From positions 3,712,001 through 3,776,000 of the forward strand of contig OZ241917.1 of NCBI GenBank assembly GCA_965203805.1: a stretch of DNA of 64,000 nucleotides, read 5' to 3'. The translations under genes were made by a program, and so were the position numbers. Positions within the stretch are counted from its first letter, which is position 1; the number at the start of each line of letters is the position of its first letter. Shown one piece after another: positions 41,017 to 64,000 of the stretch. The notes under the pieces are model-generated. The model saw only the letters and a list, made by a program, of their open reading frames with translations. It searched no databases and was not told where the DNA came from. The stretch comes from Candidatus Latescibacterota bacterium (GTDB lineage: Bacteria; Latescibacterota; UBA2968; GCA-2709665).

Positions 41017-41340
41017 ATGTCTTGCTCACAGAATAAAACAAGGGATAGCAGTTTGCATTTCGAGTATTGCAAGGCTTATTCATTGAGCGAATTGCTTAGG
41101 TTCCCAGGGTTTGCGGAAAGAGAAACCAAATGCAAATCTAGTGACAAAGGGAATTCTGTGCGCTCACATCGAGGTTCTTCTAAGTTGGGGATTGTATATC
41201 TCCACGAAGACTTCACCGTCACAGCCTCAGGTCGCAGGGGTGAAGACTTAATATACCATCAAGTTACATCTGAATGGAGAGAGTTCTGTACGAAGGAACT
41301 GAAGTTTGAGATCCCGCCAATAACGAAGCCATCGACCTAA
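41017..41340 (+). CDS. Conserved hypothetical protein of the type seen beside MbtH/TauD NRPS clusters
   Basis: YCKAYSLSELLRF, YLHEDFTVT, EWREFCTKELKFEIP; recognised from recall, not from a search. Confidence 0.6.
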   Translation: MSCSQNKTRDSSLHFEYCKAYSLSELLRFPGFAERETKCKSSDKGNSVRSHRGSSKLGIVYLHEDFTVTASGRRGEDLIYHQVTSEWREFCTKELKFEIPPITKPST

Positions 41341-41381
41341 CACACTAGGCGCGGATGAGATTATACGCACTGGAAAATTCA

Positions 41382-41960
41382 ATGAGCAATACCGAAAAAG
41401 ACGTTAAAGTTGTTGTCAATGCTCATGGAGAATACTCCATTTGGTCGGCTTCACGTGATATCCCAGATGGCTGGCACGATGTTGGTAGAGTTGGAATAAA
41501 GGAGGAGTGCCTAGATTACATTGAAGGCGTGTGGCTGACAGAAACACCGCTACGAGCTCAATATCCATCAAAACATGCTTGTTGCGAGCATCTCTCCGAG
41601 GAACTAACGAAATTCGACGTAAACAAAAGACCCGAGACAGGCCCCAGAGACTTGGTCAAGCACCTCGCTCAAGGAAAGCACGCTATCGAGCTTTGTGCTC
41701 GTTCAAATAGACATACCACGATCAATGAAATCGCCAAGGAACCGTACGCCTTCGTCAATTTTCCCAATACCCAGGGCGGTACACTGCTCAGGGTCCCAAC
41801 CGACACTTTCCGTAACACGAAAATAAACAAGCACGAATGTGACGTGGGATACTGGCACTTGGAAGGTGAGACCGTACTTAATCACGTGAAGATACGGTGT
41901 ATCCTCCACATAGATGGCGACACTCTGGCCGGAGAGGGGTACGTAAAGATTCTCTCGTGA
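41382..41960 (+). CDS. MbtH-domain protein with a C-terminal extension
   Basis: VVVNAHGEYSIW...PDGW...CLDYIEGVW (all three Trp), followed by ~130 aa including VNFPNTQGGTLL. Confidence 0.88.
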   Translation: MSNTEKDVKVVVNAHGEYSIWSASRDIPDGWHDVGRVGIKEECLDYIEGVWLTETPLRAQYPSKHACCEHLSEELTKFDVNKRPETGPRDLVKHLAQGKHAIELCARSNRHTTINEIAKEPYAFVNFPNTQGGTLLRVPTDTFRNTKINKHECDVGYWHLEGETVLNHVKIRCILHIDGDTLAGEGYVKILS

Positions 41961-42009
41961 CTTGGCCCGACATGAGTGCTGTACTTATTGATGGACTGTT
42001 GTATTGTAG

Positions 42010-42254
42010 CCTGATTTATAAGGTGGGCGTTGGGATGTTGCGGGCGAAGTGTTGGGTTCTACGCCTAGAGTGATTGCTAGACACCGACGTAAAGTTGAGG
42101 AGCCACATCAAGCGCTTACGAGACTATAGTTGGCTTGGGCGACAGGTTGTTGTGTCATTCATTAAGACTAACGAGGCTGTCGCTTTGTTTGGCCGCAACC
42201 AAATGGGTTCTGGTAAATACACTGCCCGTAGTTTTTCGTTATGAAAAACTAAGG
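42010..42254. mobile_element. Possible degenerate IS1380-type MITE abutting the IS1380
   Basis: Imperfect ends CCTGATTTATAA / TTATGAAAAACTAAGG; shares the TTAA at 42255-42258. Confidence 0.3.
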
Positions 42255-42414
42255 TTAACCTTATTTCGCAAATAATGCTGTTGAATTTCGGAGCATTGAA
42301 GACTAAGCAAAGATGGTGATAAGTCTATATTTTTCAATAGGAAAAGGCCTTCCATTTTGTTGTATTGGGAAGCGTCGAAACCCCCAATTCACCCAAAACG
42401 AAAAGCCACGTACA

Positions 42415-43813
42415 GTGAGACGAAAGAAAGCCGATTTGCGCGCGCGCGTCAACGACAATTTGAAGATCGAATTCACCGGTGAAGGCCTCACTTCGTATGT
42501 GGGTTTGGAATTGTTGATGCGATATTTGCGGAACGTGGATTGGAACAGGCAATTGCGCCGTCATTTGGGCAATGTGGGCTTTGGCGGCGATTTCGGTGTG
42601 GTGAGCCTTTCCCGTGTTGTATTGGGATTGCTGGTGGTGGGCGGCCGTCGGTTGCGACATCTGGATTTCTTGAAAGGAGATCCCCTGCTGCAGCGGTTCT
42701 GCGGTCTGACGGATCTACCGCCCCCCCGTAGCATGAGCGCGTTTCTGAGACGGTTTACCGACAAGGGTCTCAATGCCCTGAAAGCCCTCAACGCCGATGT
42801 TGTTGCCCATAAGATCAAGTTGTTGCGCGCCCGGAAATTGACGATCGACGTGGACGGCACCGTGTTGTGCACCGGAAAACGCGTCGGCGGCGCCCGCCGC
42901 GGGTATAATCCGCATCATCGCAAAGTCCCCAGTTACTATCCGATTACCGCCTACCTGGCCGACAGTGGTCATTTTCTGGGCGCCCACAACCGGCCCGGCA
43001 ACATCAACGATGGCAGTGCCTCCATCGAGTTTCTAAAGGATGTGTTTTCTCAGATCAAGGAAAGCTTGGGACACGCCTACTCCCTGCGATTCCGCATGGA
43101 TGGCGACTTTTTCAAGAAAGATGTGATCAACAGGCTCGACAAGAACAAGGCCTCGTATGCCATCAAGGTGCCCTTTTGGAAAGGCTTGGACTTACAGCAC
43201 AAAATCCGTCAATGCAGCAACTGGCAGCGCATCGAGAAAGGCGTCGACGGCTTCACGTCAACGCTGACGGTCAAAAAATGGGAACGCACCCTCAACATTG
43301 CCATCTTTCGAAAACGCGTGATGCATCAAACCCGCAAAAACTACCAGTTGGACCTATTCGATCTCGATGACGGTACCTTCGAATACTCTGCGGTGGCCAC
43401 CAATCTACCTTTCAAGTTGCGCTCGCTCCGGCGCTTCATGGCAGGGCGCGGCGTGCACGAGAGAGCCATCGGCGAACTCAAGACCGGACTCAGCTTCGAT
43501 ACCATCCCCACACACGATACCCACGCCAATAGTGCCTGGCAACAGTTCGTCATTCTCGCGTACAACCTCCTGGTCAACTTCCAGATCGAAACCGGACCGA
43601 CAAAACGCAATCGCACCTTGAAAAATACCAACCGACCTGCCTGCTGCAGGCAGGTGGCCACTCAAATCCATACGCACCCTACGGTTCGAACTCGTCAACC
43701 GAGCCGGACACCTCGTGCGACCCGAAGGACGCCTTACACTGCGCCTCCAACGCAACAAACACACCGAAAAACATTACCGTCAAAGTTGCAATGCGCTACA
43801 GAAAGCTGCCTGA
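42415..43813 (+). pseudogene. IS1380 transposase frameshifted by a 19-bp palindrome
   Basis: LTSYVGL, TIDVDGT, FRMDGDF, RGVHERAIGELK, LAYNL; removing 43636-43654 restores WPLKSIRTLRFELVNRAGHLVRPEGRLTLRL...KAA-stop (43813). Confidence 0.85.
43636..43654. repeat. 19-bp perfect hairpin CCTGCCTGC-T-GCAGGCAGG
   Basis: Inserted between codons CGA and TGG without duplication. Confidence 0.88.
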
Positions 43814-43840
43814 TTTATTTCAAATTTAGGTTAAACACCA

Positions 43841-43905
43841 AATCGCCCGTGTTCTTGCGGGTATATCCAAGTTCATGTTGCTTAATTTTGTCGAATCTAA
43901 GTTAG
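43841..43905. mobile_element. MITE family C right-end remnant
   Basis: GTGTTCTTGCGG...TTTGTCGAATCTAAGTTAG, very similar to 52181-52245. Confidence 0.65.
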
Positions 43906-44396
43906 AGTCTAAGACCTTGAGACACAGACGGTGACGGGGTTGCGATCGCGATTTCCTCGGCAGAAGACACGTGACTATTACGGCATTTCTCGACTCTATG
44001 TTCGATCCGAGTACCGCCAATGAACCGCGCGTGGAGTCTCCCGCGCTGTAAGTTGCGAATATTCTTGAATGTCCAATGCGTGTGGAGGTGTCTTGGCCAT
44101 CCTCACCTTGTGCAGATTAATTGCAAATCTGGGTCTACGACCTCCGTCGCAACAAGGGATGTGTCCGTTTGAGGAATTGACTACTACCCGGCCGATTTCG
44201 TTGTTATTAAGGGGAGCGTCAAATAGTTGACAATATTAGAGGGCAGCGTAGCGTACGGATGGGACCTGACAGTAGCGTTAATTACCAAGAGCGGCAAATG
44301 GTTGACATCTATGCCCGGCTACGCCAGCAATATGCTCCCCGTAATAACGCGAAACATGGCCTCAGGCTGAACCGGAAACTCTGGTGACGGAATCTT

Positions 44397-46139: not shown

Positions 46140-46152
46140 GGAAATTGTCAGG

Positions 46153-47901: not shown

Positions 47902-48078
47902 TGGTTGTTTGCGCTAAAGGGAACCTATGCTAAACTTCGTCCGATCGCATAGACAACCGAATTATGCACAAAAACCCAAGCGAAAGACTTCCTAAGGATT
48001 TTTGTATGGGTACCAAGAGTTTTTTACAAAGCGGGCACGAAACTTGTATAAACACTCACACACAGTTTGGAGGCGCAA

Positions 48079-49224
48079 ATGCCAAATCTTAAGGATCGTA
48101 TCAGCGTTGACCTCAATGAGAACCTGCAATACCGCCCGGTATTAGGAAAGTCTGTGGATGAGCGCCTTGATTTAGACATAGATAGAGTGATGAACAAGGT
48201 TCAGTACCCTGAAAGACTGTTCGCTGGCCTTGACGATATCGAGTTGCCTGCTCTTGAGCAACTGTTGAGAGAAACTCAATTGTATGTGCTCGGTCTGCGT
48301 TTGACCAATGTCTGTAACTACGACTGTGTATATTGTGGAACTGCAGCAAAGAGAGGCCGTGATTCCAAACTTGTCCTGAGAACCCGGGAGTACCGGGACG
48401 TAGTCGAACAAGCCTCCGAACTTGGAGTAAGCAGCATAATTTTCGGTGCAAATGGCGAACCACTAATGACCAAGGATCTATTGGAGATTGTGGAGTACAC
48501 GGCAAAACATAATATGACGCCGATAATCTTCACGAACTTGTCAATTTTAGGTCATGATCAACTGTGTGAACGTCTCCATGGAATTTCAGGCATATCTCTA
48601 ATGCAGAGACTGGATGATGCCGGTACCTCATTGATTATTGCGTGTGAGTCGCTAGAGGAAAGGACTTACAATGCGATCATGGGTGTCGACACGTTTAGAT
48701 ACTTCGAGGCCGGAATTGAGAGAATCCAATCAAGCTCCTCGTTCACGCAATACCGGGAGTTTGGGCTCTTGCCTTTGTGTAGAATTGCGGTCTCAACAGT
48801 GGTGATGCCGATCAACTACAAGGAATGTCATGCACTAAGAGATTTCGCACACAGTTTGAATGGACTGATAGTCCTCAAGCCGCCATCTTTGCACGGGTCG
48901 GCAAAAAAGAATGCGAAGGATATGTTTGCACCAGAGCAAGTTGCAGACATCCGTAAGGAATTGAATGAGCTCTCCGATAAGCGTGCAACCCTTCAGATTT
49001 TGACGCTCGCTTGCGCATCGTGGACCCTAGGATTGTCCATAGATAATGAGGGAAACTACATGAGTTGCATGACTGAGGAAGTAAACCCGTTCGGTGAAGG
49101 TCTGACCGTGAGAAACACGCGTTTGCGTTCAGTAGTGCAAAGACGAAATGAACTAGTCAAGCTCAGTAATACCATTTGTCCAGTAAAGGACAAATTCTAC
49201 ACGCCGGAACCGGCCCAAATCTAG
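48079..49224 (+). CDS. Radical SAM enzyme with a twitch-like C-terminal domain
   Basis: CNYDCVYC, NGEPL, FTN; C-terminal Cx12Gx4C plus one more Cys; GGAGG before ATG 48079. Confidence 0.88.
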   Translation: MPNLKDRISVDLNENLQYRPVLGKSVDERLDLDIDRVMNKVQYPERLFAGLDDIELPALEQLLRETQLYVLGLRLTNVCNYDCVYCGTAAKRGRDSKLVLRTREYRDVVEQASELGVSSIIFGANGEPLMTKDLLEIVEYTAKHNMTPIIFTNLSILGHDQLCERLHGISGISLMQRLDDAGTSLIIACESLEERTYNAIMGVDTFRYFEAGIERIQSSSSFTQYREFGLLPLCRIAVSTVVMPINYKECHALRDFAHSLNGLIVLKPPSLHGSAKKNAKDMFAPEQVADIRKELNELSDKRATLQILTLACASWTLGLSIDNEGNYMSCMTEEVNPFGEGLTVRNTRLRSVVQRRNELVKLSNTICPVKDKFYTPEPAQI

Positions 49225-49515: not shown

Positions 49516-50808
49516 ATGAAAGAACATGGAAATCCCAATCTTGCAACTCTAAAGGACCCTAATGGACTTGTGCATGACTGGAACGTAGAACGATTTCCAC
49601 CTCGGTTTTGTGGATTTGTAGACGAGACAATAAGGGATGGTCTCCAGGCTCCCAACGCTCCAGCCTTAAGCACTTCGGATCGGATGGATTTTATCGATCT
49701 GATGGTGCGATCAGGAATAACAGATGTGATAGTTGGGATGGTTGGTCCCGGCCGTGAAAACAGAGATAGGATTGAGGCGCTCTTACGAAGCTGTGACGAG
49801 CGTTCCTATCCCATCCAAACTTGGCTGCTATCTCGGCATTCAGACGAGGATCTGCAAGAGTTGGTAGATATTAGTCAGTCAACTGGGTGTGATTTTGGCA
49901 TGAACATATTTCTTTGTGCGAGTAATATCCGACTGTTTGCGGAAGGCTGGGACTTGAAGAAGCTACTTAGAAAACTTGAAAGGTGTCTTCAGGTCCAAGG
50001 CCGTGAGTTTTCTGAAATACGAGTTGCAATTGAAGATGCCACGAGAACGTTCCCAAACACCTTGGCTGAAGTGGCCAAACTAGCGATTGAGAATGGAGCA
50101 ACAAGAATTACTGTAGCCGATACTGCTGGGATTTCTACTCCCGATGGAGTAAGGAGGATTTTTGAATTCCTACAAGCGTCGCACCTGGCCCTTGCTGACG
50201 GACTGGTGAAGCTAGAATGGCATGGACATAATGATCGGGGTTTGGCGGTTTCAAACAGCCTTGAAAGTATTCAGTGTGGTGCCAGCTACGTGCATGGAAC
50301 TATCCTTGGAGTAGGTGAGAGAAACGGTAATGCCGCACTTGACACGGTCATACTCAATCTTGCCGATATTCTATCGGACAAGATGAATTGGACGGCGCTG
50401 CAGAAGTATTATCATGTATGCTACGATAAATTCAGAGATGTAATAGCCAAAAACCATCCATTTCTTGGCGAGAATTCCTTCATTACTTCCACGGGAACAC
50501 ACTGTGCTGCAATCAAAAAGGCGCTGGAGAAGGGGTGCCCCGAGATTGCGCAAAGCCTCTTTTCCCCTGCCTCAGCGTACAACGATGTAGAGAGCATTTC
50601 ATTTCAGGTGTCTCCCAATAGCGGAAGACGAAGTGTGCAACTTGTACTCGAGCGTATTGGGATAGATTATCGGAACGAATGTCTGATCGAGGAGATATTG
50701 GATTTGGCAAACTGCCTGAATCGGACCCTGACTAATCGCGAGATAAGAAACATAACGGAGGCCTGTATTGGATCTAAGCGAGAGCAGTCTGTGAACGAAT
50801 CACAATAA
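49516..50808 (+). CDS. Isopropylmalate/homocitrate synthase-like DRE-TIM acyltransferase without a regulatory domain
   Basis: DETIRDGLQ, EDATR, ADTAG, HGHNDRGLAVSN, GVGERNGN. Confidence 0.88.
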   Translation: MKEHGNPNLATLKDPNGLVHDWNVERFPPRFCGFVDETIRDGLQAPNAPALSTSDRMDFIDLMVRSGITDVIVGMVGPGRENRDRIEALLRSCDERSYPIQTWLLSRHSDEDLQELVDISQSTGCDFGMNIFLCASNIRLFAEGWDLKKLLRKLERCLQVQGREFSEIRVAIEDATRTFPNTLAEVAKLAIENGATRITVADTAGISTPDGVRRIFEFLQASHLALADGLVKLEWHGHNDRGLAVSNSLESIQCGASYVHGTILGVGERNGNAALDTVILNLADILSDKMNWTALQKYYHVCYDKFRDVIAKNHPFLGENSFITSTGTHCAAIKKALEKGCPEIAQSLFSPASAYNDVESISFQVSPNSGRRSVQLVLERIGIDYRNECLIEEILDLANCLNRTLTNREIRNITEACIGSKREQSVNESQ

Positions 50809-50989
50809 TGGATTCGGCATCGTCCTGCCGTTTACAGTTCTTCAACTATAAGGGTGCAGGGTAGTATGAAAAACTCTCCCGAGAAGGTGCCGGAGCAATG
50901 GAGGAGAACATACCTCTGTAGCTATAGAGTTGACGATAGAGTTGACGGGTGTAGAGAATTTGCTGCAAGGCATACCCGATGAACCGGGC

Positions 50990-52151: not shown

Positions 52152-52180
52152 GTAGTAGATCCATCGACTCATTACATCAG

Positions 52181-52245
52181 ATCGCCTGTGTTCTTGCGGA
52201 TAAATCCGAGCTAATGTCGCTCAAATTTGTCGAATCAAGGTTAGA
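52181..52245. mobile_element. MITE family C right-end remnant
   Basis: ATCGCCTGTGTTCTTGCGG...GTCGAATCAAGG-TTAG; direct repeat of 43841-43905. Confidence 0.65.
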
Positions 52246-54113: not shown

Positions 54114-54184
54114 GAAGTGGGAGGTTTGTGGCGTTGCCCCGGATTTCTTTTGCCGATGCAATAATGCGATGTTCAGCCACCTAA

Positions 54185-54430
54185 GGTGAATTATTCACGA
54201 AAACCCTGGTCTTGATGTATAACGGGTTGTTTTTCAATAGATTCTGCGAAATATGACGCGTCAGCATTTCATGAATTACGAAAGTGATGGGTCAGGGTGA
54301 TGTTTTGTAGCCCACCGAGGTAAGGATCCATCGGTTTGGCCCGGAATCGTGGGCATTTGTCCTGCTCTTGGTCTTTTTCCTGTTCATCCTGTCCATCCAT
54401 GTAAGTTCATGTTTAGTGGATTATTCAGGC
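54185..54430. mobile_element. Possible MITE with TGAATTATTCAC / GTGGATTATTCAGG ends
   Basis: Imperfect inverted ends; contains a TTCATCCTGTCCATCCATGTAA repeat related to 39194-39210; a similar CCTGAATTATTCA end lies at ~49452. Confidence 0.4.
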
Positions 54431-54562
54431 TAAACGAGTTATCGTTCGCGTTGTACCGGCCTAGAAGCAGGGGCACCGCTACTTGACAGGCTCATCATTC
54501 ACACGTGATTTTATGTTCAACCTCCTGATACCCGAGCTACGTCAATCAAGAGACTCTCCGTC

Positions 54563-55949
54563 GAGATATTGTCAAATGTTGTGGATGGCGGCGAGCGTAT
54601 CCTGATGGATCAGGCGGCGGCTTTGACGTCTCCATCCTCGAATTCGACGCCCTGGACCACGAGTTCAATGAGCTTGTGACTGTGTAATCGTTGCCAGTGT
54701 TTCTGGGCTTGGTCGGCCAGTTTGTAAACCATCATCAACGTGGCGTTTCGAGAGCCGCATCCTTTGGTCTGGCGCGTGCGGTGGCGAACGGTGCTGAAAG
54801 TGGATTCAATGGGATTGGTGGACCGGAGGTGTCGCCAGTGAGCGGCCGGGAAATCGTAAAAGGTGAACAGCACGTCCTTGTCTTTTTCCAGGCACGCACA
54901 CGCTTTGGGGTATTTGGCTTCATAAAGGGACAGAAAGTCCTCGTAAGCGGCCAGGGCATCCTCTCTGGTGGGTGAGAGATACATCTCGTGGAGGCGCCCT
55001 TTGGCCTGCGCCTGGACCGTTTTGGGGAGGTTATCCAGCACGTTGGCACTCTTGTGCACCCAGCAGCGCTGATGGCTTGTCTCGGGGAAGACTTCCTCCA
55101 GCGCGGCCCAGAAACCCAGGCCGCCATCGCCAATGGCCAGGGCAGGCGCTTCTTTCAACCCTCTTCTTTTCAGGTCCCTGAGCACACCTTCCCAGGACAG
55201 CTTGCTTTCACGATGTCCATCCTCGATCGCCAACAGTTCCTTACGGCCATCCTTCGTGGCACCGATGATGACTAAGACGCAGGGCCGGTCCGGTTCCAGT
55301 CGCACCTGGAAATAGATGCCATCGGCCCAGACATACACGTAGTGTTTATCTGAAAGATCCCGTTGTTGCCACGCTCGATATTCTTCGTCCCAGATCTGCT
55401 TGAGCCGAACGATGTTGGCCGGTGACAGCCCCACCGCATTCTCACCCAAAATCGCAGAAAGTGCCTCGGGGAAGGACGACGTCGAGACCCCCTTGAGATA
55501 CAGTGCCGGAATCAACGCATCGATAGAGGGTGCCCGACGCATATATCTCGGCAAAATGGCTGAGCTGAATGTCTTTCCCTTACGCCTGTCGTGCACACGC
55601 GGCTGCCGGATCTCAAGGTGTCCTACGCCCGTGATCAGTTCCCGTGGCTTGTGAGATCCATTCCTGACCACTTGCCGGTGACCACGTTCATCCTTCTCCG
55701 CTTGCAACCCTTCAACGTAGGCGTCCACTTCAAACTCCAACGCGGCTTGCAGCATCCGCCTGGCCCCAACACGAATCAGATCTTCCAGGCTCAACGTCAC
55801 TTCATCTTTGACTATCGTCTCAACTTCGGAGGCCGTATATTGTCTCATCGAGCGTATCCTTCCTCCCTCGTCTGAGGGATCTCGGGTTAATAGTGATACT
55901 ATAGGATACGCTCTTTTTTTACCTCATCCACAACTTTTGAATATAACTC
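54563..55949 (-). mobile_element. IS256-family insertion sequence with a perfect 9-bp target duplication
   Basis: TIRs GAGATATTGTCAAATGTTGTGGATG / CATCCACAACTTTTGAATATAACTC; CTCTCCGTC at 54554-54562 and 55950-55958. Confidence 0.93.
54610..55848 (-). CDS. IS256 transposase
   Basis: LYLKGVST, WADGI, IGDGGLGFW, QRCWVHK, STNPIES. Confidence 0.95.
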   Translation of the reverse strand: MRQYTASEVETIVKDEVTLSLEDLIRVGARRMLQAALEFEVDAYVEGLQAEKDERGHRQVVRNGSHKPRELITGVGHLEIRQPRVHDRRKGKTFSSAILPRYMRRAPSIDALIPALYLKGVSTSSFPEALSAILGENAVGLSPANIVRLKQIWDEEYRAWQQRDLSDKHYVYVWADGIYFQVRLEPDRPCVLVIIGATKDGRKELLAIEDGHRESKLSWEGVLRDLKRRGLKEAPALAIGDGGLGFWAALEEVFPETSHQRCWVHKSANVLDNLPKTVQAQAKGRLHEMYLSPTREDALAAYEDFLSLYEAKYPKACACLEKDKDVLFTFYDFPAAHWRHLRSTNPIESTFSTVRHRTRQTKGCGSRNATLMMVYKLADQAQKHWQRLHSHKLIELVVQGVEFEDGDVKAAA

Positions 55950-56179
55950 CTCTCCGTCTGCCTGCGTCCAATAGGCCTACTCAACGCAGGCAATCCAGAT
56001 CTTGCTTCGACCTCTTTTAGGTTTGTCAGCCGACCTTTGACAAGATTAACATTCAAGGAATGATAATAGTAGTCCATGAAGAGGGTGTCCGTTTCAATGC
56101 CTTCTTCCCCATTGGTGCGATGCAGGCGTTCCTTCGCCACATACCTCGTTCTTTATTCTCAAAGGGGATGTTGTCTCAT

Positions 56180-56404
56180 TAACTTTGATTCGAAAAGAGT
56201 AGGTAGTTGAACTATTCTGTGGAGAGAATAGGTAGTTGACGGCGATCTAAACGCCCCGACAAAAGCGGGGTAAATCCCGTGTGGATTGGTTTGATCTTCG
56301 GTCACATCCTGTGAAATTAACTATCATCCAATTGCAGAGTCTATCGCGTTTGTCTTACTTGGCAGATTCAATCTCTCGTCGGTGGAGTTTTAACGAATCA
56401 AGGC
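56180..56404. mobile_element. MITE family C, copy 2
   Basis: TAACTTTGATTCG...CGAATCAAGG; homologous to 40701-40893. Confidence 0.7.
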
Positions 56405-56514: not shown

Positions 56515-56805
56515 GTGAGTAACGAAACAACGTCGCTAGTTGTCGAGAGGGTCAACACGATACTTGCCGCTAACAATCAAGCAGTCCTTCCAACTAACTT
56601 GGCAGGTGATGACACTCTTCTGAAGTCGGAGAAATACTCCCTCGGATTGATCGGATTGGACTCACAAGCGATTATGGAGCTGTTCTTAGTCATTGAACAA
56701 GACTTTAATGTGGATTTGGTAGACGATGATCTTTCCTATGAGGCAGTAGGCACTCTGGGCCACCTCGTTGATTATGTCGACCGAAAATTGGAGAATGTCA
56801 CATGA
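56515..56805 (+). CDS. Stand-alone acyl carrier protein
   Basis: LIGLDSQAIMELFLVIEQDFNV (GxDS site), acidic, AGGAG RBS. Confidence 0.88.
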   Translation: MSNETTSLVVERVNTILAANNQAVLPTNLAGDDTLLKSEKYSLGLIGLDSQAIMELFLVIEQDFNVDLVDDDLSYEAVGTLGHLVDYVDRKLENVT

Positions 56806-57680
56806 GAATCGGGTTAGCACAGATGCAAATAGGAGATAGTCTGACAGGAAACGCGGAAAAAGTGGTGTCCTTCATAAGAGAAGCAAGCTCGGACAAGGTT
56901 GACTTTATCGCATTTCCAGAGACTTGCTTGACCGGTTACCTTGGAATTTCACTGAACTGCCTGTCTTCTGTAAAAATGAAGAGTCTGTATAAGGCTCTCA
57001 ACGAAATACAGGATCTCTGCCGGGAATTATGCATCAGTGTCGCAACCGGTCAATATTTCAGGAGATGTGGGCGGTGGTATAACAACGCCGTAGTATTCGG
57101 AAGTGATGGGAAGTGTAAAACTAGCTACGACAAGAATCACCTTATTGACCGGGATTGTTTCGATGTAGTAGCTGGGAGAGAACCGCCTGAAGTGTTTCAA
57201 CTGCAAAAAGCTAGGGTGTCGATTGGGATTTGCCATGATATTCGGTATCCCGAGCCGTGGCGATGGGCCGCAATAAAAGGAAGCCAGATACAAGCCTGTT
57301 TGTTCTACGGTGTCCGATCCGAAAGCGATTTGCGAGATCAAGAGATATATGATGCGCATTTGTCCACACGTGCGGCAGAAAACGGCGTATTCTTGGTCGC
57401 TACCAATGTAGCGGCTAAGGAGCAAATGGTTCGATCGCAGATACGCGATCCCGAAGGCCGTCTGCTGGTCCGCGCGAACTCCTGGAAGGAAGAACTCTTA
57501 GTAAGCGACATTGAACCCGATCTAGGAGGCCAAGGTTGGGTAGAGCGGCGTCGCGGGGATCTGTATACACTAAAGCTTCAACCGAAGGAACGAGGAAGTG
57601 TGTTTGATGAGGGATTCTGGGAACGTCCGTACTATATAATTGAGCATGATCGAAGATTGATGGGGGATCAGGAAACTTGA
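56802..57680 (+). CDS. Carbon-nitrogen hydrolase (nitrilase/amidase)
   Basis: FPE, YDKNHL, ICHDIRYPE, RAAENG; ATGA overlap with the ACP gene. Confidence 0.9.
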   Translation: MRIGLAQMQIGDSLTGNAEKVVSFIREASSDKVDFIAFPETCLTGYLGISLNCLSSVKMKSLYKALNEIQDLCRELCISVATGQYFRRCGRWYNNAVVFGSDGKCKTSYDKNHLIDRDCFDVVAGREPPEVFQLQKARVSIGICHDIRYPEPWRWAAIKGSQIQACLFYGVRSESDLRDQEIYDAHLSTRAAENGVFLVATNVAAKEQMVRSQIRDPEGRLLVRANSWKEELLVSDIEPDLGGQGWVERRRGDLYTLKLQPKERGSVFDEGFWERPYYIIEHDRRLMGDQET

Positions 57681-57730
57681 ACATCCTTTCGAAGAGACGT
57701 TGATGGGATGGGATTTCTAAAGGCTCTAAA

Positions 57731-58570
57731 ATGGCACTGCATGATATTGTGGTCGGTGACTTCGGACGCCAAGGGACATTAAGGTATTTGATTGAATTCT
57801 CCAAAGCGGAAAGAGAGCTAATTTCAGCCCAATTGGAAAATGGCGAGTTTCTGGATGAGTACAGGCGCATTCGTTATACGGTGATTGGGAGACTTAGAGA
57901 GATAAAGCACAAGTTGGTTGGTCGCTGCAATGGACAGCTTGACCGTAGCGTCTTAATAGGTGTCAGACACGGTGTTTCTCCTCACGAGATTTTAACTCCA
58001 CTTCTTGCGACCGTGCTGCCGTTCATCCGTCTTGTAGCCAATTCGAAGACTGAACGGATACGGCTAATATTGCCGTGCAATACGCTGGGAAGGCTAGCAT
58101 CGACTCTACAATCGATCTTTGATGACCGCCACGATCGAAAAGAATTGGAAATGGCCATGGGCCAAAATGCAAAGGCCGACTTGGAATGGGTGTCAAGGTG
58201 GCTACGTGAAGGAGGGGATATTGAAGTTCCTGGTATACCAGAGACTGTGGTTGGAGAGCTAGCATGTCCAAGCACTCGGACGCTTTCTATTCTCGGGTCA
58301 CAAGAGAGCTTGTTTGCTTACAAACAAGCGGTTCAAAAACAACGCCTTTCGATTGCCGTTCAATCGTATCTGCCAAATGGGGTGCAAAGTTTCGAGCGAT
58401 TACTTATCGGAGTCATTAACGGCCGAATCTCCCTAAAGGGAATAGATCCGCCCGCCAAAAATGAAGTCCGCATTTGCGGATGTACCGATTTGAAAGTGCC
58501 GATTATAGCAGATTCGATCAGGATCTTTGCTAGACACCTAGTCACCCACGCGTATAAGTATCTTTCGTAA
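57731..58570 (+). CDS. Divergent Asp/Glu racemase-superfamily protein
   Basis: Two catalytic-type Cys motifs, LILPCNT and ICGCTDL. Confidence 0.6.
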   Translation: MALHDIVVGDFGRQGTLRYLIEFSKAERELISAQLENGEFLDEYRRIRYTVIGRLREIKHKLVGRCNGQLDRSVLIGVRHGVSPHEILTPLLATVLPFIRLVANSKTERIRLILPCNTLGRLASTLQSIFDDRHDRKELEMAMGQNAKADLEWVSRWLREGGDIEVPGIPETVVGELACPSTRTLSILGSQESLFAYKQAVQKQRLSIAVQSYLPNGVQSFERLLIGVINGRISLKGIDPPAKNEVRICGCTDLKVPIIADSIRIFARHLVTHAYKYLS

Positions 58571-58578
58571 GGTTCCCG

Positions 58579-61353
58579 ATGAAAATTGAGATCCCGTTAA
58601 TATTCGACAATGAGTCACATACCTGTTTAGAGGATCTGGGAGCATCGATAGTAAACTGGTACGGACGTCCATTTCAGCTTATGTATGCAGAATCGTGGGG
58701 GTTTGCTTTTGATACCGCTACCATCACTTCTCGGAAATTGCTTGGCGAGAGACTTAATCCGAACATAGGTAACCAGTGGAGTCTCCTGGAGCGACACCAG
58801 GGCATAAGGCTAGATAAACGTGAACATGAACTAGCTTTTGACAGGTACGTGTGCGACCAAGTTACAGACGGTACACCTGTTATCTTTAAACTCGCGAGTA
58901 AGTTGAATGAAAAATGCTCGTGGGGGATTGCTATCGGATTTGACAGAAAAAGGGGGAGCATTCACTATCTGACTCAGAACAGAGAATCGAGCTTCCGCCG
59001 GTCGACAAAGGCTGGTTCAATTCGACTTGATGAGTTTGCTAACAGAACAGTGTATACACTCACGCCCACGGTCCTTAGCTCCGACGAGATACTTAACGTT
59101 AATTTCCAACAGCTTGTTATTGCAGGTGTTATGCGTTCAATGTGTGGTGGAATTGAGCCGACAAGCTATCAAAGTAAACTGAAGTTTGCTGACGCGATTG
59201 AGCGTTCATTGGATATTGAAGCTGAGCTAAGAGGGTATTCTGAACTGTTTTGGCCGCCCCTCCTGTACAATCTTATGCGTGTCAGCCATGGCAGGTCACA
59301 GTTCTCGCGTTTTCTAGACTTCACTCATGAGTTGTTTCCGCTGCCTGGACTAAGGGATGGTTCGTCAGAAATCAAACGGCTAGGTCGCGAGTGGTGGTTG
59401 ATCCGTAGCCTTCTTATCAAATTGGCAATGGCGCCAAAAGATAGTAAGCTTGTTTCTCATATTGCGAATCGAATTCGGAGTTTGGCAAGTGAGGAGGCGA
59501 ATGTAGCCAAGAGGTTACAGCAGATCGACTGGATTTGCTTAGGCAAACTCGAATCTTCCAAAGCTAATTTACAGATAGCCAGTGTAGTTGCAAGGTCAAA
59601 GAACGAGCCGCCTTACCCTAATCCAAGCCACCCGCGACCCAGGTTGGCATTTTCGCCTGCTCTTCCATTGAACGGTACTGAATTTCGACTATGCGGGATT
59701 TGGGCTGAAGTGTTGGGAGTGGATGTTATTGGCACAATGGATGATTTCTTTGAACTTGGGGGCGATTCGTTATCGGCCGTACGAGTATTGGGGCGTGTAT
59801 GTGAGGAATTTGGTGTGAAGCTCTCGTTGCGGCGGCTGTTTGAGAGTCCGACGGTATCTGGGTTGGCGATTCTCATTGACGCGGAGGGTGGTTTGCAGGG
59901 AAAGGTCGGAAATTCGTCCATGATACCTCGGGCCAATAGAAGCGAGGATGCACTGCCGCTTTCGTTTGCACAGCAGCGGCTGTGGTTTTTTGATCAACTG
60001 GAGCCAGGAAATGTCTTCTATAATATACCGTCTGCGGTTCGTCTACGTGGTCCACTTTGTATGACTGCTCTTTGGTGGAGTGTAAATGAGATAATCCGGC
60101 GACATGAGTCTCTGCGCACAACCTTTGCGAGGCGTGAAGGACAGCCTATACAAGTAGTGGCAGATGAGTTACAGCTGCCGTTGAGGGTGATAGACTTACG
60201 AGGTCTTCCAGATGCAGAACAGCGCGCTCAACAATTAGCCCGCAGGGAGGCTGAGCGTGCTTTTTCACTGGAATGCGGTCCGTTGTTAAGGATCGTGTTA
60301 TTGTGGATAGGTGACGAGGATTACCTGCTGGTACGGATAACACACCACATAATCTCTGATGGTTGGTCTGAGAGTATTTTTCTTAAAGAGTTGGCTGTTT
60401 TCTACAATGGTCGTGTAAGTGGTCGGCATACAACTCTTCCAGCGCTACCCATCCAATATGTTGATTTCTCGGTTTGGCAGCGACAACAGTTGCAGGGTGA
60501 AATGCTGGCGAAACAACAAGCATATTGGAATGAGCAACTGCGAGATAGCCCACCTATTTTAAAGCTACCTATTGATCGTCCCAGACCAGAGATACAATCG
60601 TTTCGAGGTGGTGTATGCTCCCTGAAGTTACCGAAAGAGCAGACCGAAGAACTGAAGAAATTGAGCCGTCAAGAAGGGACGACATTGTTCATGACATTGC
60701 TGACGGCACTCAAGGTTTTGCTGTACAGACTCAGTGGTCAGAGCGATATCTGCGTGGGGACTCCAATTTCCAATCGCACACGCCCTGAAACAGAGGGGAT
60801 CATAGGGCTATTTCTAAACATGCTGCCCTTGCGAACACATGTGCAAGAGGATATGAGCTTTCGCGACCTGCTTAGAACGGTGCAAAAGACTTGCCTAGAT
60901 GCATTCGCAAATAAAGATATCCCATTCGAAATGTTGGTACGCGCCGTATCGGGACGGAACGGCTTAGCGATCAGTCCAATCTTCCAGGTTGTATTCCAGT
61001 TTCAAAATACGCCGAAAGCCCATAAGAGAATTGCTGGCATCGACACGTCTAAAGTGAGGATCATGGCACCAGTGGCAAAATTTGATCTCCTGCTAAACAT
61101 GTGCGAGGAAGATGACGGTGAACTGTTCGGCCTTCTGGAGTATTGCATAGATATATTCAAGCATGACAGCGCACTACGACTGATGCGGCAGCTCAAGAGG
61201 ATAATTGACTTGGTCGCGATTCGACCGGACGATACCCTATTCGATATGTACAGGAATTTCCAGCGTGAAGAGGATGAGAACACGGCAAGAAGTACGAAAA
61301 GATATGAGGAGATTTTGAGGAGTCAGTTGAGGACTCTTGTAAAGCAAGAGTAG
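58579..61353 (+). CDS. A-less NRPS protein: BtrH-like N-terminal domain, T domain, C domain
   Basis: HTCLED...LMYAESWGFAF...IGFD (BtrH_N-like); FFELGGDSL (T); LSFAQQRLWF, RHESLRT, HHIISDGWS (C); no A domain. Confidence 0.85.
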   Translation: MKIEIPLIFDNESHTCLEDLGASIVNWYGRPFQLMYAESWGFAFDTATITSRKLLGERLNPNIGNQWSLLERHQGIRLDKREHELAFDRYVCDQVTDGTPVIFKLASKLNEKCSWGIAIGFDRKRGSIHYLTQNRESSFRRSTKAGSIRLDEFANRTVYTLTPTVLSSDEILNVNFQQLVIAGVMRSMCGGIEPTSYQSKLKFADAIERSLDIEAELRGYSELFWPPLLYNLMRVSHGRSQFSRFLDFTHELFPLPGLRDGSSEIKRLGREWWLIRSLLIKLAMAPKDSKLVSHIANRIRSLASEEANVAKRLQQIDWICLGKLESSKANLQIASVVARSKNEPPYPNPSHPRPRLAFSPALPLNGTEFRLCGIWAEVLGVDVIGTMDDFFELGGDSLSAVRVLGRVCEEFGVKLSLRRLFESPTVSGLAILIDAEGGLQGKVGNSSMIPRANRSEDALPLSFAQQRLWFFDQLEPGNVFYNIPSAVRLRGPLCMTALWWSVNEIIRRHESLRTTFARREGQPIQVVADELQLPLRVIDLRGLPDAEQRAQQLARREAERAFSLECGPLLRIVLLWIGDEDYLLVRITHHIISDGWSESIFLKELAVFYNGRVSGRHTTLPALPIQYVDFSVWQRQQLQGEMLAKQQAYWNEQLRDSPPILKLPIDRPRPEIQSFRGGVCSLKLPKEQTEELKKLSRQEGTTLFMTLLTALKVLLYRLSGQSDICVGTPISNRTRPETEGIIGLFLNMLPLRTHVQEDMSFRDLLRTVQKTCLDAFANKDIPFEMLVRAVSGRNGLAISPIFQVVFQFQNTPKAHKRIAGIDTSKVRIMAPVAKFDLLLNMCEEDDGELFGLLEYCIDIFKHDSALRLMRQLKRIIDLVAIRPDDTLFDMYRNFQREEDENTARSTKRYEEILRSQLRTLVKQE

Positions 61354-61399
61354 AAGCGAAAAAGACAGAATATTGGGTTGACTTGAGGGGGAGGTTGAA

Positions 61400-62434
61400 A
61401 TGACACTTAAAGGCCCTAGTGATGTGAAACGGAATAGAATTTCGGTGTCTAGTAATGAGCTTGCGGCGATAGGCTACATTGAAAGGGAGAGCATATTACC
61501 TCTCGTTGTACGGGCAAAGTCTCCAGGAGTAGACATCACTCATTGGTACAGTGACAACGCAGTCCTCGTTCGGAACGGTTTAAGCAAATTTGGTGCCGTT
61601 CTGTTCAGAGGATTTGAGATCGAATGTTTGGGAGAATTCCAGAAGTTCGTAGCAGTCTCTTCTGGGGAACTTTTGGAGTACTACGAGCGATCTTCCCCAA
61701 GAAGAAAAATAACAGGGAAAATCTACACTTCCACCGAATATCCGGCAACCCGCCCCATCTTTCTGCATAATGAGAACTCGTACCAACATCAGTTCCCTAG
61801 CAAGATCTATTTTTTCTGTCAATCGCCCCCACAGGCAGGAGGCGAAACTCCGATAGCAGATTGTCGGAGTGTCTACAAATCAATTGATCCAGCGATTCGA
61901 GAGAAATTCATCAATAAAGGTGTAATGTATGTCCGAAATTTCTACAAGGGCTTAAATCCTTCGTGGCAGACGGTCTTTCAGACGCAAGAAAAGTTGGTTG
62001 TTGAGGCGTATTGCCACAATGCCAATATTGCGGTTGAGTGGAAGGCGGATGACAGTCTGCGAATTAGCCAGATCCGTCCCGCCGTCATCGACCATCCTCA
62101 GACCTCTGAGAAGGTATGGTTTAACCACGCGGTCTTCTTTCATGCGTCGTCCGTGGAAGTCTCAGCTCGAACGCAGCTTGGCCAGATATTGAACGAGGAG
62201 GATCTTCCAAGCAACACATTTTACGGAGATGGTTCTATTATTGAGCCATCGGTTGTATCGCGGATACGAAGCATTTACCTGCAGAATAAAGTGTCTTTCA
62301 CTTGGGAGAAGAATGACATCCTGATGCTCGATAATATTAGCGTTGCTCATGGGAGAGAGCCATTTGTTGGGCGTAGGGAGATAATGGTTGCAATGACGGA
62401 GCCTACGAAACACCTCAACGTGAAGGAGGATTAA
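61400..62434 (+). CDS. SyrP-like TauD Fe(II)/2OG beta-hydroxylase
   Basis: GAVLFRGF, YTSTEYP, LHNENSY, GGETPIAD, WFNH, DNISVAHGR. Confidence 0.9.
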   Translation: MTLKGPSDVKRNRISVSSNELAAIGYIERESILPLVVRAKSPGVDITHWYSDNAVLVRNGLSKFGAVLFRGFEIECLGEFQKFVAVSSGELLEYYERSSPRRKITGKIYTSTEYPATRPIFLHNENSYQHQFPSKIYFFCQSPPQAGGETPIADCRSVYKSIDPAIREKFINKGVMYVRNFYKGLNPSWQTVFQTQEKLVVEAYCHNANIAVEWKADDSLRISQIRPAVIDHPQTSEKVWFNHAVFFHASSVEVSARTQLGQILNEEDLPSNTFYGDGSIIEPSVVSRIRSIYLQNKVSFTWEKNDILMLDNISVAHGREPFVGRREIMVAMTEPTKHLNVKED

Positions 62435-64000
62435 TGAACTCGGACACAATTGTGGGAACTCGACTCTCTCCACAACAGGACCACGTTTGGCGTCTGCAAG
62501 TAGCTGCTTCAGGTCGAATATTTGGTGTACATTGTCTAGTGAATATTCGGGGTGTTTTAGATGGGGAATCTCTGAGGAGTGCCCTATTGTCCGTAGTCGA
62601 GCGACACGAGATCCTTCGGACAGAGTTTCAATTCATTCCTGGCCTGAAGGTACCACTTCAGGTAATACAAGAGACAGTCGATCTATCGTTTAATAAATGT
62701 GACATCAGCCACTTGAGTTCGCTGGCTCAAACTGAAAAGATTGAATCGACATTCTATATGGACAAGCCCAATGTGACGAAGACTGAACAGCGTGAAGTGC
62801 CGACCTTTCAACTGCTGAAGCTCACTAAAAAGGAGCATTTGCTGTCGGTCAACTTACCAGCAATGTGTGCGGACGCAAAGTCATGTGACATTCTGGCGAG
62901 GGAGCTAAGTTGCTTCTACAATCGAGGCATTAGTTCAGAGTGTATTACATCCGACCAACTTCAGTTCGCTGATGTTGGGGAATGGGAGCACAGCGTGTTA
63001 GAATCAGAGGATAGTGAAATTGGGAGAGCGTACTGGCGAGATTGTAAATTGGATAGTTTGCTCAACACGAAGTTGCCAATCCAACGTGAACAAGCCGACA
63101 GTCGCTTGTTTGATCCTCGCGCACTTGAACTTGCGGTTCCGGCTGAATTGCACTCAGCAATTGTAAATGCTTGTCGTAACTGGAGAGTCTCAATTGCTGA
63201 TTTTCTCTTGACGTGCTGGTACGTGTTTCTTTGGCGATTGAACCGGCAGAGTGGTCTGGCCGTCGGTGTCGCTGTGGACGGGCGGAATTATGAAGAGATA
63301 GAAGGATTGGTCGGACCACTTACAAGCTACGTACCGGTGAGAGTCGGCATGTCTAAACACTCGCCGTTCAAGCAGATTCTGGCTACGGTAGCTAAGGCGA
63401 CGAAGGACGCAAGGCGATGGCGAGAGTCCTTCTCATGGCAGGAGAGACTGAGTTCAGCAAACGTCGACGAACCCTACTTTCCATATATTTTCGATTTCTA
63501 CGGCGCCGAACGTGAATATTGCTGCGGTAAGGTCGAGTTCTCTGCTGACGTAATTCAATGGCGAACCGAACGATTCAAACTAAGGTTTTTAGGGCGAATG
63601 CAGAAAAGGTCGTTGCAAATTGGGATCGAGTACGACTCCGCCTGCTTTAGTGAAGAGGATGTTCGATCGCTACGCCGACCGTTAACCGAACTGGTCAAGA
63701 GTTGTCTCGACAGGCCGGATGTTCCCATATCTGCCATTAAACTCGTCGATGATGCGATGCAGTATCATTCAACAATCAATCGGAACGAGAGACCGGCGAA
63801 AAATCTTGAAGAGAAGTGTATTCACCGGCTTTTCCAGTGCCAAGTTCAGAAAGTGTCAGACCGAATTGCAATCGAGTTTGCGGCAGGACACCTGACGTAC
63901 AGCGCCCTTGAAACCCGTGCTAACCAGTTAGCAAATCACCTTCGTAGGCTGGGGGTTGGCCCTGGAGTACAAGTTGGAATACTCATTGAGCGCTCTCCGG
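62434..64000 (+). CDS. NRPS starting with an interface (I)-type C-like domain followed by an A domain; truncated by the window end and absent from the ORF track
   Basis: Frame open from ATG 62434 (TAATG overlap) to 64000: RLSPQQ, RHEILRT, LPAMCAD replacing HHxxxDG, DGRNYEE, then A1 motif LTYSALETRANQLA. Confidence 0.88.
   Translation, partial: MNSDTIVGTRLSPQQDHVWRLQVAASGRIFGVHCLVNIRGVLDGESLRSALLSVVERHEILRTEFQFIPGLKVPLQVIQETVDLSFNKCDISHLSSLAQTEKIESTFYMDKPNVTKTEQREVPTFQLLKLTKKEHLLSVNLPAMCADAKSCDILARELSCFYNRGISSECITSDQLQFADVGEWEHSVLESEDSEIGRAYWRDCKLDSLLNTKLPIQREQADSRLFDPRALELAVPAELHSAIVNACRNWRVSIADFLLTCWYVFLWRLNRQSGLAVGVAVDGRNYEEIEGLVGPLTSYVPVRVGMSKHSPFKQILATVAKATKDARRWRESFSWQERLSSANVDEPYFPYIFDFYGAEREYCCGKVEFSADVIQWRTERFKLRFLGRMQKRSLQIGIEYDSACFSEEDVRSLRRPLTELVKSCLDRPDVPISAIKLVDDAMQYHSTINRNERPAKNLEEKCIHRLFQCQVQKVSDRIAIEFAAGHLTYSALETRANQLANHLRRLGVGPGVQVGILIERSP

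Follow-up and report, generated by a model that had tools for sequence, protein, structure and literature searches.

We analysed a stretch of 64,000 nucleotides, hereafter the window, from a Candidatus Latescibacterota bacterium (contig OZ241917.1, positions 3,712,001 to 3,776,000). It corresponds to G000:C1:3712001-3776000 in a single-contig genome of 5.87 Mb, and the G codes used below denote the genomes of the phylum that were compared. The right part of the window holds a gene cluster built around a nonribosomal peptide synthetase (NRPS), which extends about 14 kb beyond the window end; positions there are given in L002 coordinates, which continue past the window (L002:6778 is window-equivalent 68778). 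Gene calls came from a listing of open reading frames (ORFs) together with Pfam and NCBIfam scans. A sequence-only reading of this DNA had listed an MbtH-like protein, a pair of ATP-binding cassette (ABC) proteins, a radical S-adenosylmethionine (SAM) enzyme, an isopropylmalate synthase (IPMS)-like enzyme, a PaaK-like ligase, a free acyl carrier protein (ACP), a carbon-nitrogen hydrolase, a racemase-like protein, a BtrH-like domain fused to thiolation (T) and condensation (C) domains, a TauD-type dioxygenase and the NRPS. All of them were recovered on the plus strand, at or near the places it had assigned to them. We refer to the BtrH-like domain as X and to its protein as X-T-C. All the named ORFs are open, the biosynthetic ORFs run without interruption or frameshift, and the insertions described below sit between genes.

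The cluster occupies a low-GC island. The G+C fraction falls from 0.58-0.65 at 1-38 kb of the window to 0.46-0.53 at 40-64 kb, and in the whole-genome profile the island has about 0.48 against a genome mean of 0.590. The low-GC stretch reaches from about 39.2 kb to about window-equivalent 78.1 kb, approximately 39 kb in total, and the island starts at about 39.2-39.7 kb, further left than position 41017, from which it had first been counted. The native flanks, of which the left one ends at window 39165 and the right one, with a sulfatase gene at L002:16090-17403, begins at window-equivalent 78092, are both present in 14 of the 14 other genomes of the same genus. In six of these genomes (G056, G050, G055, G058, G045 and G049) the flanks lie on one contig in the same orientation, spaced by 1.1-1.7 kb, compared to 38.9 kb in G000. 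The X domain, which we took as the signature gene, occurred in none of the 14 same-genus genomes. The radical SAM enzyme had no homologue in the 167 other genomes of the phylum (E<=1e-10), and the PaaK-like ligase had remote matches only, in two of the 167. Because the flanks are near-adjacent in six relatives, the signature gene is missing from all 14 and the GC content is 0.48 against 0.59, it is strongly supported that the island is an insertion gained by horizontal transfer. Both the lower-GC island and its horizontal acquisition, as proposed in the sequence-only reading, were thus borne out.

The left edge of the island falls within 39166..39726, the homology with same-genus genomes ending at about 39165. 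Dispersed genome repeats occur at both edges: a 260-bp repeat at 39465-39726 on the left, and a short repeat of another family at L002:15931-16084 (window-equivalent 77931-78084) on the right. These two short families may have served as recombination or insertion sites. Neither tRNA genes nor an integrase were found when sought at the island edges. Just inside the left edge, a group II intron fragment comprising domains D1-D4 lies on the plus strand (40155..40324; RF02001, 94 bits, E 3.6e-18). No reverse-transcriptase or maturase ORF follows it and no match to D5-D6 was found, and the fragment is probably a remnant. Outside the island, a dispersed repeat of about 200 bp at window 37883-38081 is highly abundant both here and across the genus, its copies being 90-99% identical.

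The assembly line of the cluster is an NRPS of 2,114 aa with the domain order C*-A-T-C-A-T (A, adenylation), which runs on the plus strand from 62434 to L002:6778 (window-equivalent 68778). The modular order of C, A and T domains, the T-C pair in the preceding protein and the presence of an MbtH-like gene all characterize it as an NRPS. The domain scan found no thioesterase or reductase domain for release. In the first C-family domain, C*, the motif HHxxxDG is replaced by NLPAMCADA, and condensing activity of this domain is therefore unlikely. By our own mapping on an LgrA alignment, with anchor rules, the code of the first A domain is DLTKVGEVGK and that of the second is DAMHVGGLAK. The A1 code agrees at nine of ten positions with what we take to be the Asn code and at eight of ten with the presumed Asp code. 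A1 thus appears Asn/Asp-like, and the A2 code suggests no assignable substrate.

Directly upstream of the NRPS is a TauD/TfdA-family Fe(II)/2-oxoglutarate dioxygenase gene (61400..62434, plus strand; PF02668 at 4.5e-42), whose stop codon overlaps the start codon of the NRPS. Its translation shows HNE...H and HGR motifs, and its nearest solved relatives are At3g21360 (4e-33) and one unnamed TauD-like entry. The dioxygenase therefore directly precedes a module that has a His-less C-family domain and an Asx-like (Asn/Asp-like) A code. In beta-hydroxyaspartate siderophore NRPSs, a stand-alone TauD-type hydroxylase is reportedly joined by a condensation-family interface domain, an arrangement that Reitz and co-workers are said to have described in 2019. 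TauD and the His-less C* would fit this interface-domain arrangement. The proposal that a beta-hydroxy amino acid is incorporated is thus plausible from the position of TauD before a module with a C* that lacks HHxxxDG and an A code that reads as Asn/Asp-like by our mapping.

The X-T-C protein (924 aa; 58579..61353, plus strand) comprises X at residues 1-360, T at 370-431 and C at 456-888, the last with HHIISDG. A direct Pfam scan of X returned only DUF4872, at E 0.018. The same X-T-C layout, in proteins of about 900 aa, was found in five of the 167 other phylum genomes (G041, G097, G098, G106 and G107), with 30-39% identity in X. The C domain of the G000 protein is of the ordinary elongation type, whereas those of the five relatives are atypical. 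When a profile of the six X domains was searched against 1.84 billion sequences, it collected 955 representatives at E<=1e-3, of which 686 reached E<=1e-10 and 182 reached E<=1e-30. Twelve of 15 sampled representatives matched BtrH_N (PF14399), and the remaining three were of the X-T-C type. Five arrangements occur in the family: its members stand alone (about 320 aa), carry a tail of 200 aa (about 530 aa in all), close NRPS or polyketide synthase (PKS) proteins at the C-terminus after a T domain, precede A-T, or precede T-C. In hhalign, X matched the cluster's own BtrH_N protein, introduced below, with a probability of 75% and E 2.6e-5. The predicted structure of X was poor (pLDDT, the predicted local distance difference test, of 50). 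The top three of 48,161 chains for this model were CtaG (9qvj; Z 11.1, root-mean-square deviation 10.2, 241 residues aligned), CcbD (7yn1; Z 10.8) and AziU3 (7wuw_C; Z 10.5), with deviations of about 10 Å. A search of PDB sequences with the X profile gave matches at chance level only, including a C39-like entry at E 0.77, and a PDB sequence search with the 380-aa BtrH_N protein gave nothing relevant. The BtrH label had been given to X before these searches. It holds as homology by the profile family, hhalign and the structure search, but the catalytic His that goes with it has been lost, a point to which we return.

A free-standing ACP (56515..56805, plus strand; Pfam and NCBIfam, with a GLDS serine) opens the stretch that leads to X-T-C. 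It is followed by the carbon-nitrogen hydrolase (56802..57680, plus strand; Pfam and NCBIfam, Glu-Lys-Cys triad intact), the start of which overlaps the ACP stop by 4 bp, and by the racemase-like gene. Four of the five distant relatives with X-T-C (G107, G106, G098 and G097) have a gene for a carrier protein immediately before X-T-C, with an ABC exporter nearby; in G041, the ORF upstream of X-T-C gave no PP-binding match. These carrier proteins are 24-30% identical to the island ACP. Genes for the radical SAM enzyme, PaaK-like ligase, carbon-nitrogen hydrolase, racemase-like protein and TauD were found in none of the five X-T-C loci. G098 and G097 have HMGL-family genes near X-T-C, among leucine-pathway-type genes (for example, aconitase and isopropylmalate dehydrogenase). 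Only in G000 do hydrolase and racemase-like genes intervene between ACP and X-T-C; a canonical NRPS then follows there. The conserved core would thus be ACP and X-T-C, together with the ABC exporter, and the suggested link between the free ACP and the BtrH-T-C protein gained support from gene order. Three runs of a predicted complex between X (59-row alignment) and the ACP (5 rows), made without controls, scored 0.01, 0.65 and 0.00. A scan of metagenome contigs with the X alignment returned four loci, all with relatives of 25-27% identity. Two of the four have an orf209 homologue (see below) adjoining a BtrH-like gene, and none has a gene set of the G000 type. As a separate observation, a fusion of a subtilase (Peptidase_S8) with DUF1611 is encoded directly upstream of ACP/X-T-C at L021:2068-4116 (G098) and L030:1454-3397 (G097), and it may act with this module in loading or processing.

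X-T-C and the NRPS share a direct repeat of 1,249 bp. The first copy (59690..60938, plus strand) covers T and about 80% of C in X-T-C, and the second (window-equivalent 65381-66629) covers T1 and most of C2 in the NRPS. The two copies differ by one mismatch (99.92% identity). In contigs from two sequencing runs of the probable source organism, the repeat forms a separate contig with approximately 1.6-2 times the depth of its neighbours, as expected of a true two-copy repeat.

Beyond the NRPS, the domain scan past the window identified three further genes, coding for a DUF2332 protein (L002:7386-8597), a DUF5916/CBM9 protein (L002:9136-11667) and a protein of 380 aa with BtrH_N and DUF4872 (L002:14240-15382). 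Two small ORFs lie between the DUF5916/CBM9 gene and the 380-aa BtrH_N gene. A sequence match identified orf209 (L002:12242-12871) as an AziU2 homologue, with E 6e-16 to AziU2/Azi28 (7wuw_A/8gs1_A). Further matches of orf209 are to the tails (200 aa) of those X-domain family members that have 530 aa and to the termini of NRPS and PKS proteins, with E values down to 1e-22 and a profile E value of 2e-30. The 380-aa protein is encoded 1.4 kb downstream of orf209, past a remnant of an insertion sequence (IS), and its Cys-His set is intact. AziU3 and AziU2 (Azi29/Azi28; PDB 7wuw, 8gs1) reportedly form the aziridine-forming heterodimer of azinomycin-type pathways, according to what Kurosawa and co-workers are said to have found in 2022. 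A Streptomyces plasmid that bears a LysW-type cluster encodes a homologue of orf209 (E 1.8e-27) directly before a BtrH_N protein that matches the 380-aa protein (E 1.6e-12). The two parts also occur as a fused BtrH-AziU2 didomain, which follows the last T domain in P0077, P0120 and P0144 and is located at the C-terminus of P0029, P0031, P0035 and P0037. The island therefore bears what its sequences identify as a split AziU3/AziU2-like pair behind an NRPS without a thioesterase. Because the fused didomain sits at the ends of NRPS and PKS lines and the island NRPS has no thioesterase, we infer that the split pair would end the chain. The main texts of the literature covered describe neither a BtrH-like domain fused to T-C nor a terminal BtrH-AziU2 didomain.

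Several enzymes in the left half of the cluster may supply or activate building blocks. The radical SAM enzyme (48067..49224, plus strand) has the motif CNYDCVYC (CxxxCxxC) and three C-terminal cysteines. Its only PDB sequence matches, BlsE at 4e-5 and BtrN at 8e-4, and its match to NF033640 (3.7e-6, below the cut-off of that family) are all weak. The assignment to the radical SAM family with CxxxCxxC therefore stands, and the more specific term 'twitch' finds weak support in the BlsE and BtrN matches. Homologues of this enzyme form 27 clusters at 51-64% identity, mostly metagenomic. Next to it is an HMGL-like (homocitrate/isopropylmalate-synthase-like) Claisen condensing enzyme (49516..50808, plus strand) with RDG and HxH motifs, in which the LeuA regulatory domain is absent. 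On plasmid pDE of Cereibacter sphaeroides 2.4.1, homologues of the radical SAM enzyme (32%, E 5e-43), the IPMS-like enzyme (31%, E 1e-17) and the DUF2332 protein (22%, E 5e-9) lie within 6 kb. This co-occurrence suggests that the trio may be a sub-pathway to an unusual building block. The uncharacterized pDE cluster (L039, 88.6-99.8 kb) codes for DUF2332, LysE, radical SAM, methyltransferase, IPMS/homocitrate-synthase-like, pyridoxal phosphate (PLP)-dependent transferase and AsnB-like proteins, and IS66 elements flank it. For DUF2332 itself, nothing was found in the literature.

The PaaK/F390-synthetase-like adenylate-forming ligase (52539..54113, plus strand) was recognized by NCBIfam families of the PaaK type, without a Pfam match, and it matches PaaK structures at E 8e-9. 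Its homology begins near residue 100, and the true start is possibly further downstream. On a Bacillus plasmid, a relative of 24% identity has a carrier protein encoded two genes away. When plasmids were searched with the PaaK-like, DUF2332, orf209 and racemase-like proteins, no syntenic cluster was found beyond the Cereibacter, Bacillus and Streptomyces matches. The racemase-like protein (279 aa; 57731..58570, plus strand) was assigned by its fold and two Cys motifs. It gave no match to PF01177 at E<=10, and a search of 5.8 billion proteins recovered only nine relatives, at 30-33% identity. The cysteines of its PCNT (C116) and CTD (C251) motifs are invariant in all ten sequences. Its structural model (pLDDT 81) had 24 PDB matches at E<=1e-3 in Foldseek, with Asp/Glu racemases first (best 3.5e-6, template modelling scores 0.44-0.54) and McyF (5xnk) just past the 24 at E 1.0e-3. 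Since PF01177 is unmatched though the fold and the two cysteines are kept, this protein is a divergent branch of the Asp/Glu racemase superfamily. A scan of genome contigs with its alignment found four loci, with other cluster genes near none of them. A protein atlas returned a label for DUF2332 only, and its racemase leads were below the threshold.

Mobile elements have entered the island repeatedly. An IS4-like element (DDE_Tnp_1_4; 42252..43833, plus strand; Pfam and genomic copies) is an older one, with two other genomic copies of 92% and 86% identity; a target duplication was looked for and none was clear. An IS630-family copy (50989..52152, transposase on the minus strand) was inserted at CTAG with TA on both sides, and it is 99-100% identical to seven other genomic copies. 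An IS256-family copy (54563..55950, transposase on the minus strand) is bordered by an 8-bp target duplication, TCTCCGTC, and is identical to two other genomic copies. Close to it is a dispersed repeat that resembles a miniature inverted-repeat transposable element (MITE; 54180..54432) and has many genomic copies at 70-93% identity. The IS remnant between orf209 and the BtrH_N gene gave a weak match (E 1.6e-4). From the target sites and duplications, and from the identity to other genomic copies, the IS630 and IS256 elements are simple, recent insertions into already contiguous DNA, later than the assembly of the cluster. A contig from a coral metagenome, a run from a different study, joins 50988 to 52149 and so represents the junction free of IS630. 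Contigs of this metagenome contain 64% of the sampled words of 56.5-62.5 kb, that is, near-identical cluster DNA, and none of them spans the IS256 site. Because these two are simple insertions with target duplications and the IS630-free junction exists in the metagenome, a chance IS-mediated juxtaposition of the genes is unlikely for the IS630 and IS256 junctions. The coral match is also a hint that the organism carrying the island lives in the sea in association with corals. At 43835-43906 and 52174-52245 we noticed two copies of a 72-bp repeat (82% identity); one directly follows the right end of the IS4-like copy, upstream of the first ABC gene, and the other that of the IS630 copy, upstream of orf81 and the PaaK-like gene.

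The MbtH-like protein (201 aa; 41355..41960, plus strand) has its MbtH domain at residues 9-57 (Pfam), followed by a C-terminal extension of about 130 aa without a family match. Two exporters of 580 and 582 aa, each a fused ABC permease and ATPase (44397-46139 and 46153-47901, plus strand; Pfam and NCBIfam), likely form a heterodimer. Two further ORFs, orf119 (40981-41340) and orf81 (52249-52494), have no family match and an odd composition, and are probably not genes. An Rfam scan of 38-64 kb (E<=0.1) found no riboswitch or leader, with the intron fragment as the sole match. An element of about 165 nt occurs in two copies that are 73% identical, both on the plus strand (40718-40871 and 56227-56381), just before orf119/MbtH and the ACP operon, respectively. 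It may serve both as a promoter, an operator or a leader. The element had no Rfam match, no convincing structure (two copies are too few for covariation) and no match to a sigma-70-type promoter.

The reading that we prefer, at a probability of roughly 0.55, is that the island is one acquired cluster, about 39 kb long, whose product would be a small, tailored and probably N-acylated peptide containing beta-hydroxy-Asx. A two-module NRPS would here be combined with carrier-protein and papain-like parts at the front and the back, the chain being started by the PaaK-like ligase, the ACP and X-T-C and finished by the AziU3/AziU2-like pair. We infer every chemical step of this route. The PaaK-like ligase would activate a carboxylic acid and load it onto the free ACP, where the carbon-nitrogen hydrolase and the racemase-fold enzyme could tailor the bound unit. 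An unusual acid or amino-acid building block would be supplied by the radical SAM/IPMS-like/DUF2332 trio. The unit would then pass to the T domain of X-T-C, with the His-less X either docking carrier proteins or handing the unit off by means of its Cys only, and the canonical C domain of X-T-C would couple it to Asn or Asp on T1. TauD would hydroxylate this residue, aided by the His-less C-like domain, and C2 would add the second residue, which is selected by the A domain with the code DAMHVGGLAK. In the absence of a thioesterase, releasing or finishing the chain in trans would fall to the BtrH-like protein, which is intact, together with its AziU2-like partner. The ABC pair would export the product.

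Parts of this route resemble systems known from elsewhere. Two reports describe CtaG, BtrH, AsbE and MllDE as papain-like carrier-protein-dependent transacylases of closthioamide, butirosin, petrobactin and methylolanthanin (PMC12865890, PMC7183216). Like this class as described there, X and the 380-aa protein belong to the BtrH_N/DUF4872 family, may share a papain-like plus helical layout, and have carrier-protein neighbours and a nucleophilic Cys near the N-terminus. Unlike that class, the island X is fused before T-C and has lost its His, and no ATP-grasp or decarboxylase partners accompany it. DarH and FlxY of the flexirubin and dialkylresorcinol systems (NF053550, NF053551) follow a comparable logic, in which a PaaK-like ligase is combined with an additional carrier protein and an acyltransferase related to BtrH. 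The island ligase matches FlxY at 1.4e-13 and the 380-aa protein matches DarH at 6.7e-7, both far under the family cut-offs; unlike those systems, the island has no aryl-polyene or resorcinol genes and an NRPS context. Homologation enzymes of the HphA/HtyA type, which resemble IPMS, occur in NRPS clusters. By analogy, the IPMS-like gene suggests a chain-extended 2-oxo acid or a homo-amino acid as building block. The mycoplanecin cluster likewise has an IPMS/homocitrate-synthase-like gene within an NRPS cluster (PMC10817943). The island has no dedicated isomerase or dehydrogenase genes, and its IPMS-like enzyme is paired with the radical SAM and DUF2332 genes, a trio that is free of NRPS genes on the Cereibacter plasmid. 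Finally, beta-hydroxyaspartate siderophore NRPSs have a stand-alone TauD-type hydroxylase and an interface domain, according to two papers (PMC7100376, PMC12971057). The island agrees with them in the TauD gene, which directly precedes a module whose C-family domain is His-less and whose A domain has an Asx-like code, and in the MbtH-like protein. It differs in having two modules, no uptake genes seen, no thioesterase, and initiation by ACP and X-T-C instead of by a starter C domain with fatty acyl-CoA.

A number of observations weigh against the preferred reading, and the catalytic state of X is the first of them. Its Cys16 is invariant in six of six X-T-C proteins, and Cys occupies this column in 26 of the 27 family sequences that cover it. 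The column of the catalytic His is taken by W, P, K, R or F in all eight sequences of the X-T-C type, compared to 19 of 20 other family members that keep the His, including the 380-aa protein of the cluster (28-sequence alignment). The Asp column of the triad is not conserved in X, which is thus without His and probably without Asp, and the Trp-rich loop that precedes the His is also absent from sequences of the X-T-C type. In CtaG, the mutants H128A and D144A are inactive (PMC7183216). Because the catalytic His that CtaG requires is absent, X may not be the transfer catalyst. By its sequence, X is a true but degenerate relative of CtaG and BtrH. We do not class it as a working ligase of the CtaG type; it may serve for docking, or for a hand-off that uses the Cys only.

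The assignments made for the other end of the route and for its substrates also count against it. AziU3/AziU2 itself makes an aziridine and is not a release enzyme. The island resembles that system in the homology of orf209 and in the BtrH_N gene that comes after it, in the order found on the Streptomyces plasmid. Unlike that system, it lacks the LysW/LysX amino-group-carrier genes as well as genes for a transketolase and a sulfotransferase, none of which was found by Pfam among the island ORFs scanned, and its pair stands behind a thioesterase-less NRPS. The fused AziU3/AziU2-like parts that end NRPS and PKS lines in relatives point to a possibly different role, not yet described. The A-domain codes are tentative readings by position rules and reference codes, and the roles given to the carbon-nitrogen hydrolase, the racemase-like protein, the radical SAM enzyme and the IPMS-like enzyme were guessed from the families to which they belong. 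Apart from near-identical DNA in a single coral metagenome, no other genome or contig was found to hold all of the genes. The sequence-only reading could be judged by whether the full set is conserved together elsewhere, and this was not seen; what recurs is ACP, X-T-C and ABC within the phylum, and the radical SAM, IPMS-like and DUF2332 genes on the Cereibacter plasmid. Lastly, the three IS copies, two of them antisense, together with the MITE, the IS remnant and the gene-converted T-C segment, may mean that the cluster is no longer expressed as a unit.

This last point leads to the alternative that survives best, in which the cluster is decaying and silent after IS and MITE hits and gene conversion in T-C. 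We consider it doubtful for the present state of the island, and it is compatible with the preferred reading for the ancestral cluster. The IS630 and IS256 copies are identical to other copies and hence recent, and they lie antisense inside a former plus-strand operon; the IS remnant separates the AziU2-like and BtrH_N genes; and both the intron fragment at the edge and the 1,249-bp repeat at 99.92% would suit such a history. However, every biosynthetic ORF is uninterrupted and free of frameshifts, and the insertions are intergenic. Moreover, IS elements can provide outward promoters.

A second alternative sees the island as a mosaic in which two or three pathways without relation to each other are placed side by side (the radical SAM/IPMS-like/DUF2332 genes; ACP, X-T-C and ABC; an ordinary dipeptide NRPS with TauD) and no product uses all the genes. 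The occurrence of ACP, X-T-C and ABC without the other genes in G107, G106, G098 and G097 agrees with such an origin, as do the different partners of the trio on the Cereibacter plasmid (methyltransferase, PLP enzyme, AsnB-like and LysE proteins) and the racemase-like homologues, which have no cluster genes nearby at four of four loci. The histories of the parts also seem to differ, because the radical SAM enzyme has homologues at 51-64% identity and none above 39% was found for X and the racemase-like protein. Nevertheless, all parts have one GC level, one strand and one insertion, and they are interleaved, since the DUF2332 gene lies beyond the NRPS and apart from its trio partners. The T-C region of X-T-C, 99.9% identical to T1-C2 of the NRPS, ties both genes together, and IS630 and IS256 were not the makers of the junctions. 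We regard the mosaic as unlikely, somewhat more so than decay.

Less probable still is a beta-hydroxyaspartate-type metallophore (siderophore), as in cupriachelin-like systems: TauD adjoining a module with a His-less first C-family domain and an Asp/Asn-like A code, the MbtH-like protein, the ABC exporter pair and an alpha-hydroxy-acid ligand that the IPMS-like enzyme could yield would accord with it, but no TonB-dependent receptor, periplasmic binding protein, FecCD permease or reductase was seen among the island ORFs scanned, two NRPS modules predict at most one chelating beta-hydroxy-Asx residue, and by the reference codes A1 appears nearer to Asn (9/10) than to Asp (8/10). Of the two products once suggested for this locus, a metallophore or a bioactive acylpeptide, the former is thus weakly supported because siderophore uptake genes are missing among the scanned ORFs, and we favour the acylpeptide.

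In the main texts of the literature covered, we found no characterized pathway with this gene set. The island carries a genuine orphan cluster, which is a variant of known assembly-line types rather than a new principle. There is a slim chance that it combines two devices that have not been described. One would be an initiation unit: a papain-like domain with Cys but without His, fused to T-C, would accept the cargo of a dedicated free carrier protein and pass it into an NRPS. The other would be a thioesterase-less, AziU3/AziU2-like ending that acts on a T-bound, TauD-hydroxylated Asx peptide. Such an ending may release the chain onto an amine, or may close the beta-hydroxy amine to a warhead of the aziridine-2,3-dicarboxylate type. 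If this is true, chains could be started not only by starter C domains or loading A domains but also, as a third way, by such an initiation unit.

The practical value of the product, as a bioactive compound or a metallophore, is unproven. If the preferred reading holds, the split BtrH-like/AziU2-like didomain, carried in two small genes, would offer an easy test case for the assembly-line ends that occupy, in many NRPS and PKS lines, the expected place of a thioesterase. The function of a His-less BtrH-like domain placed between a free carrier protein and T-C would become testable, and the radical SAM/IPMS-like/DUF2332 trio would be linked to a peptide product. For genome mining, the island is an orphan cluster that can be dissected into recurring sub-modules, though the whole has no relative.

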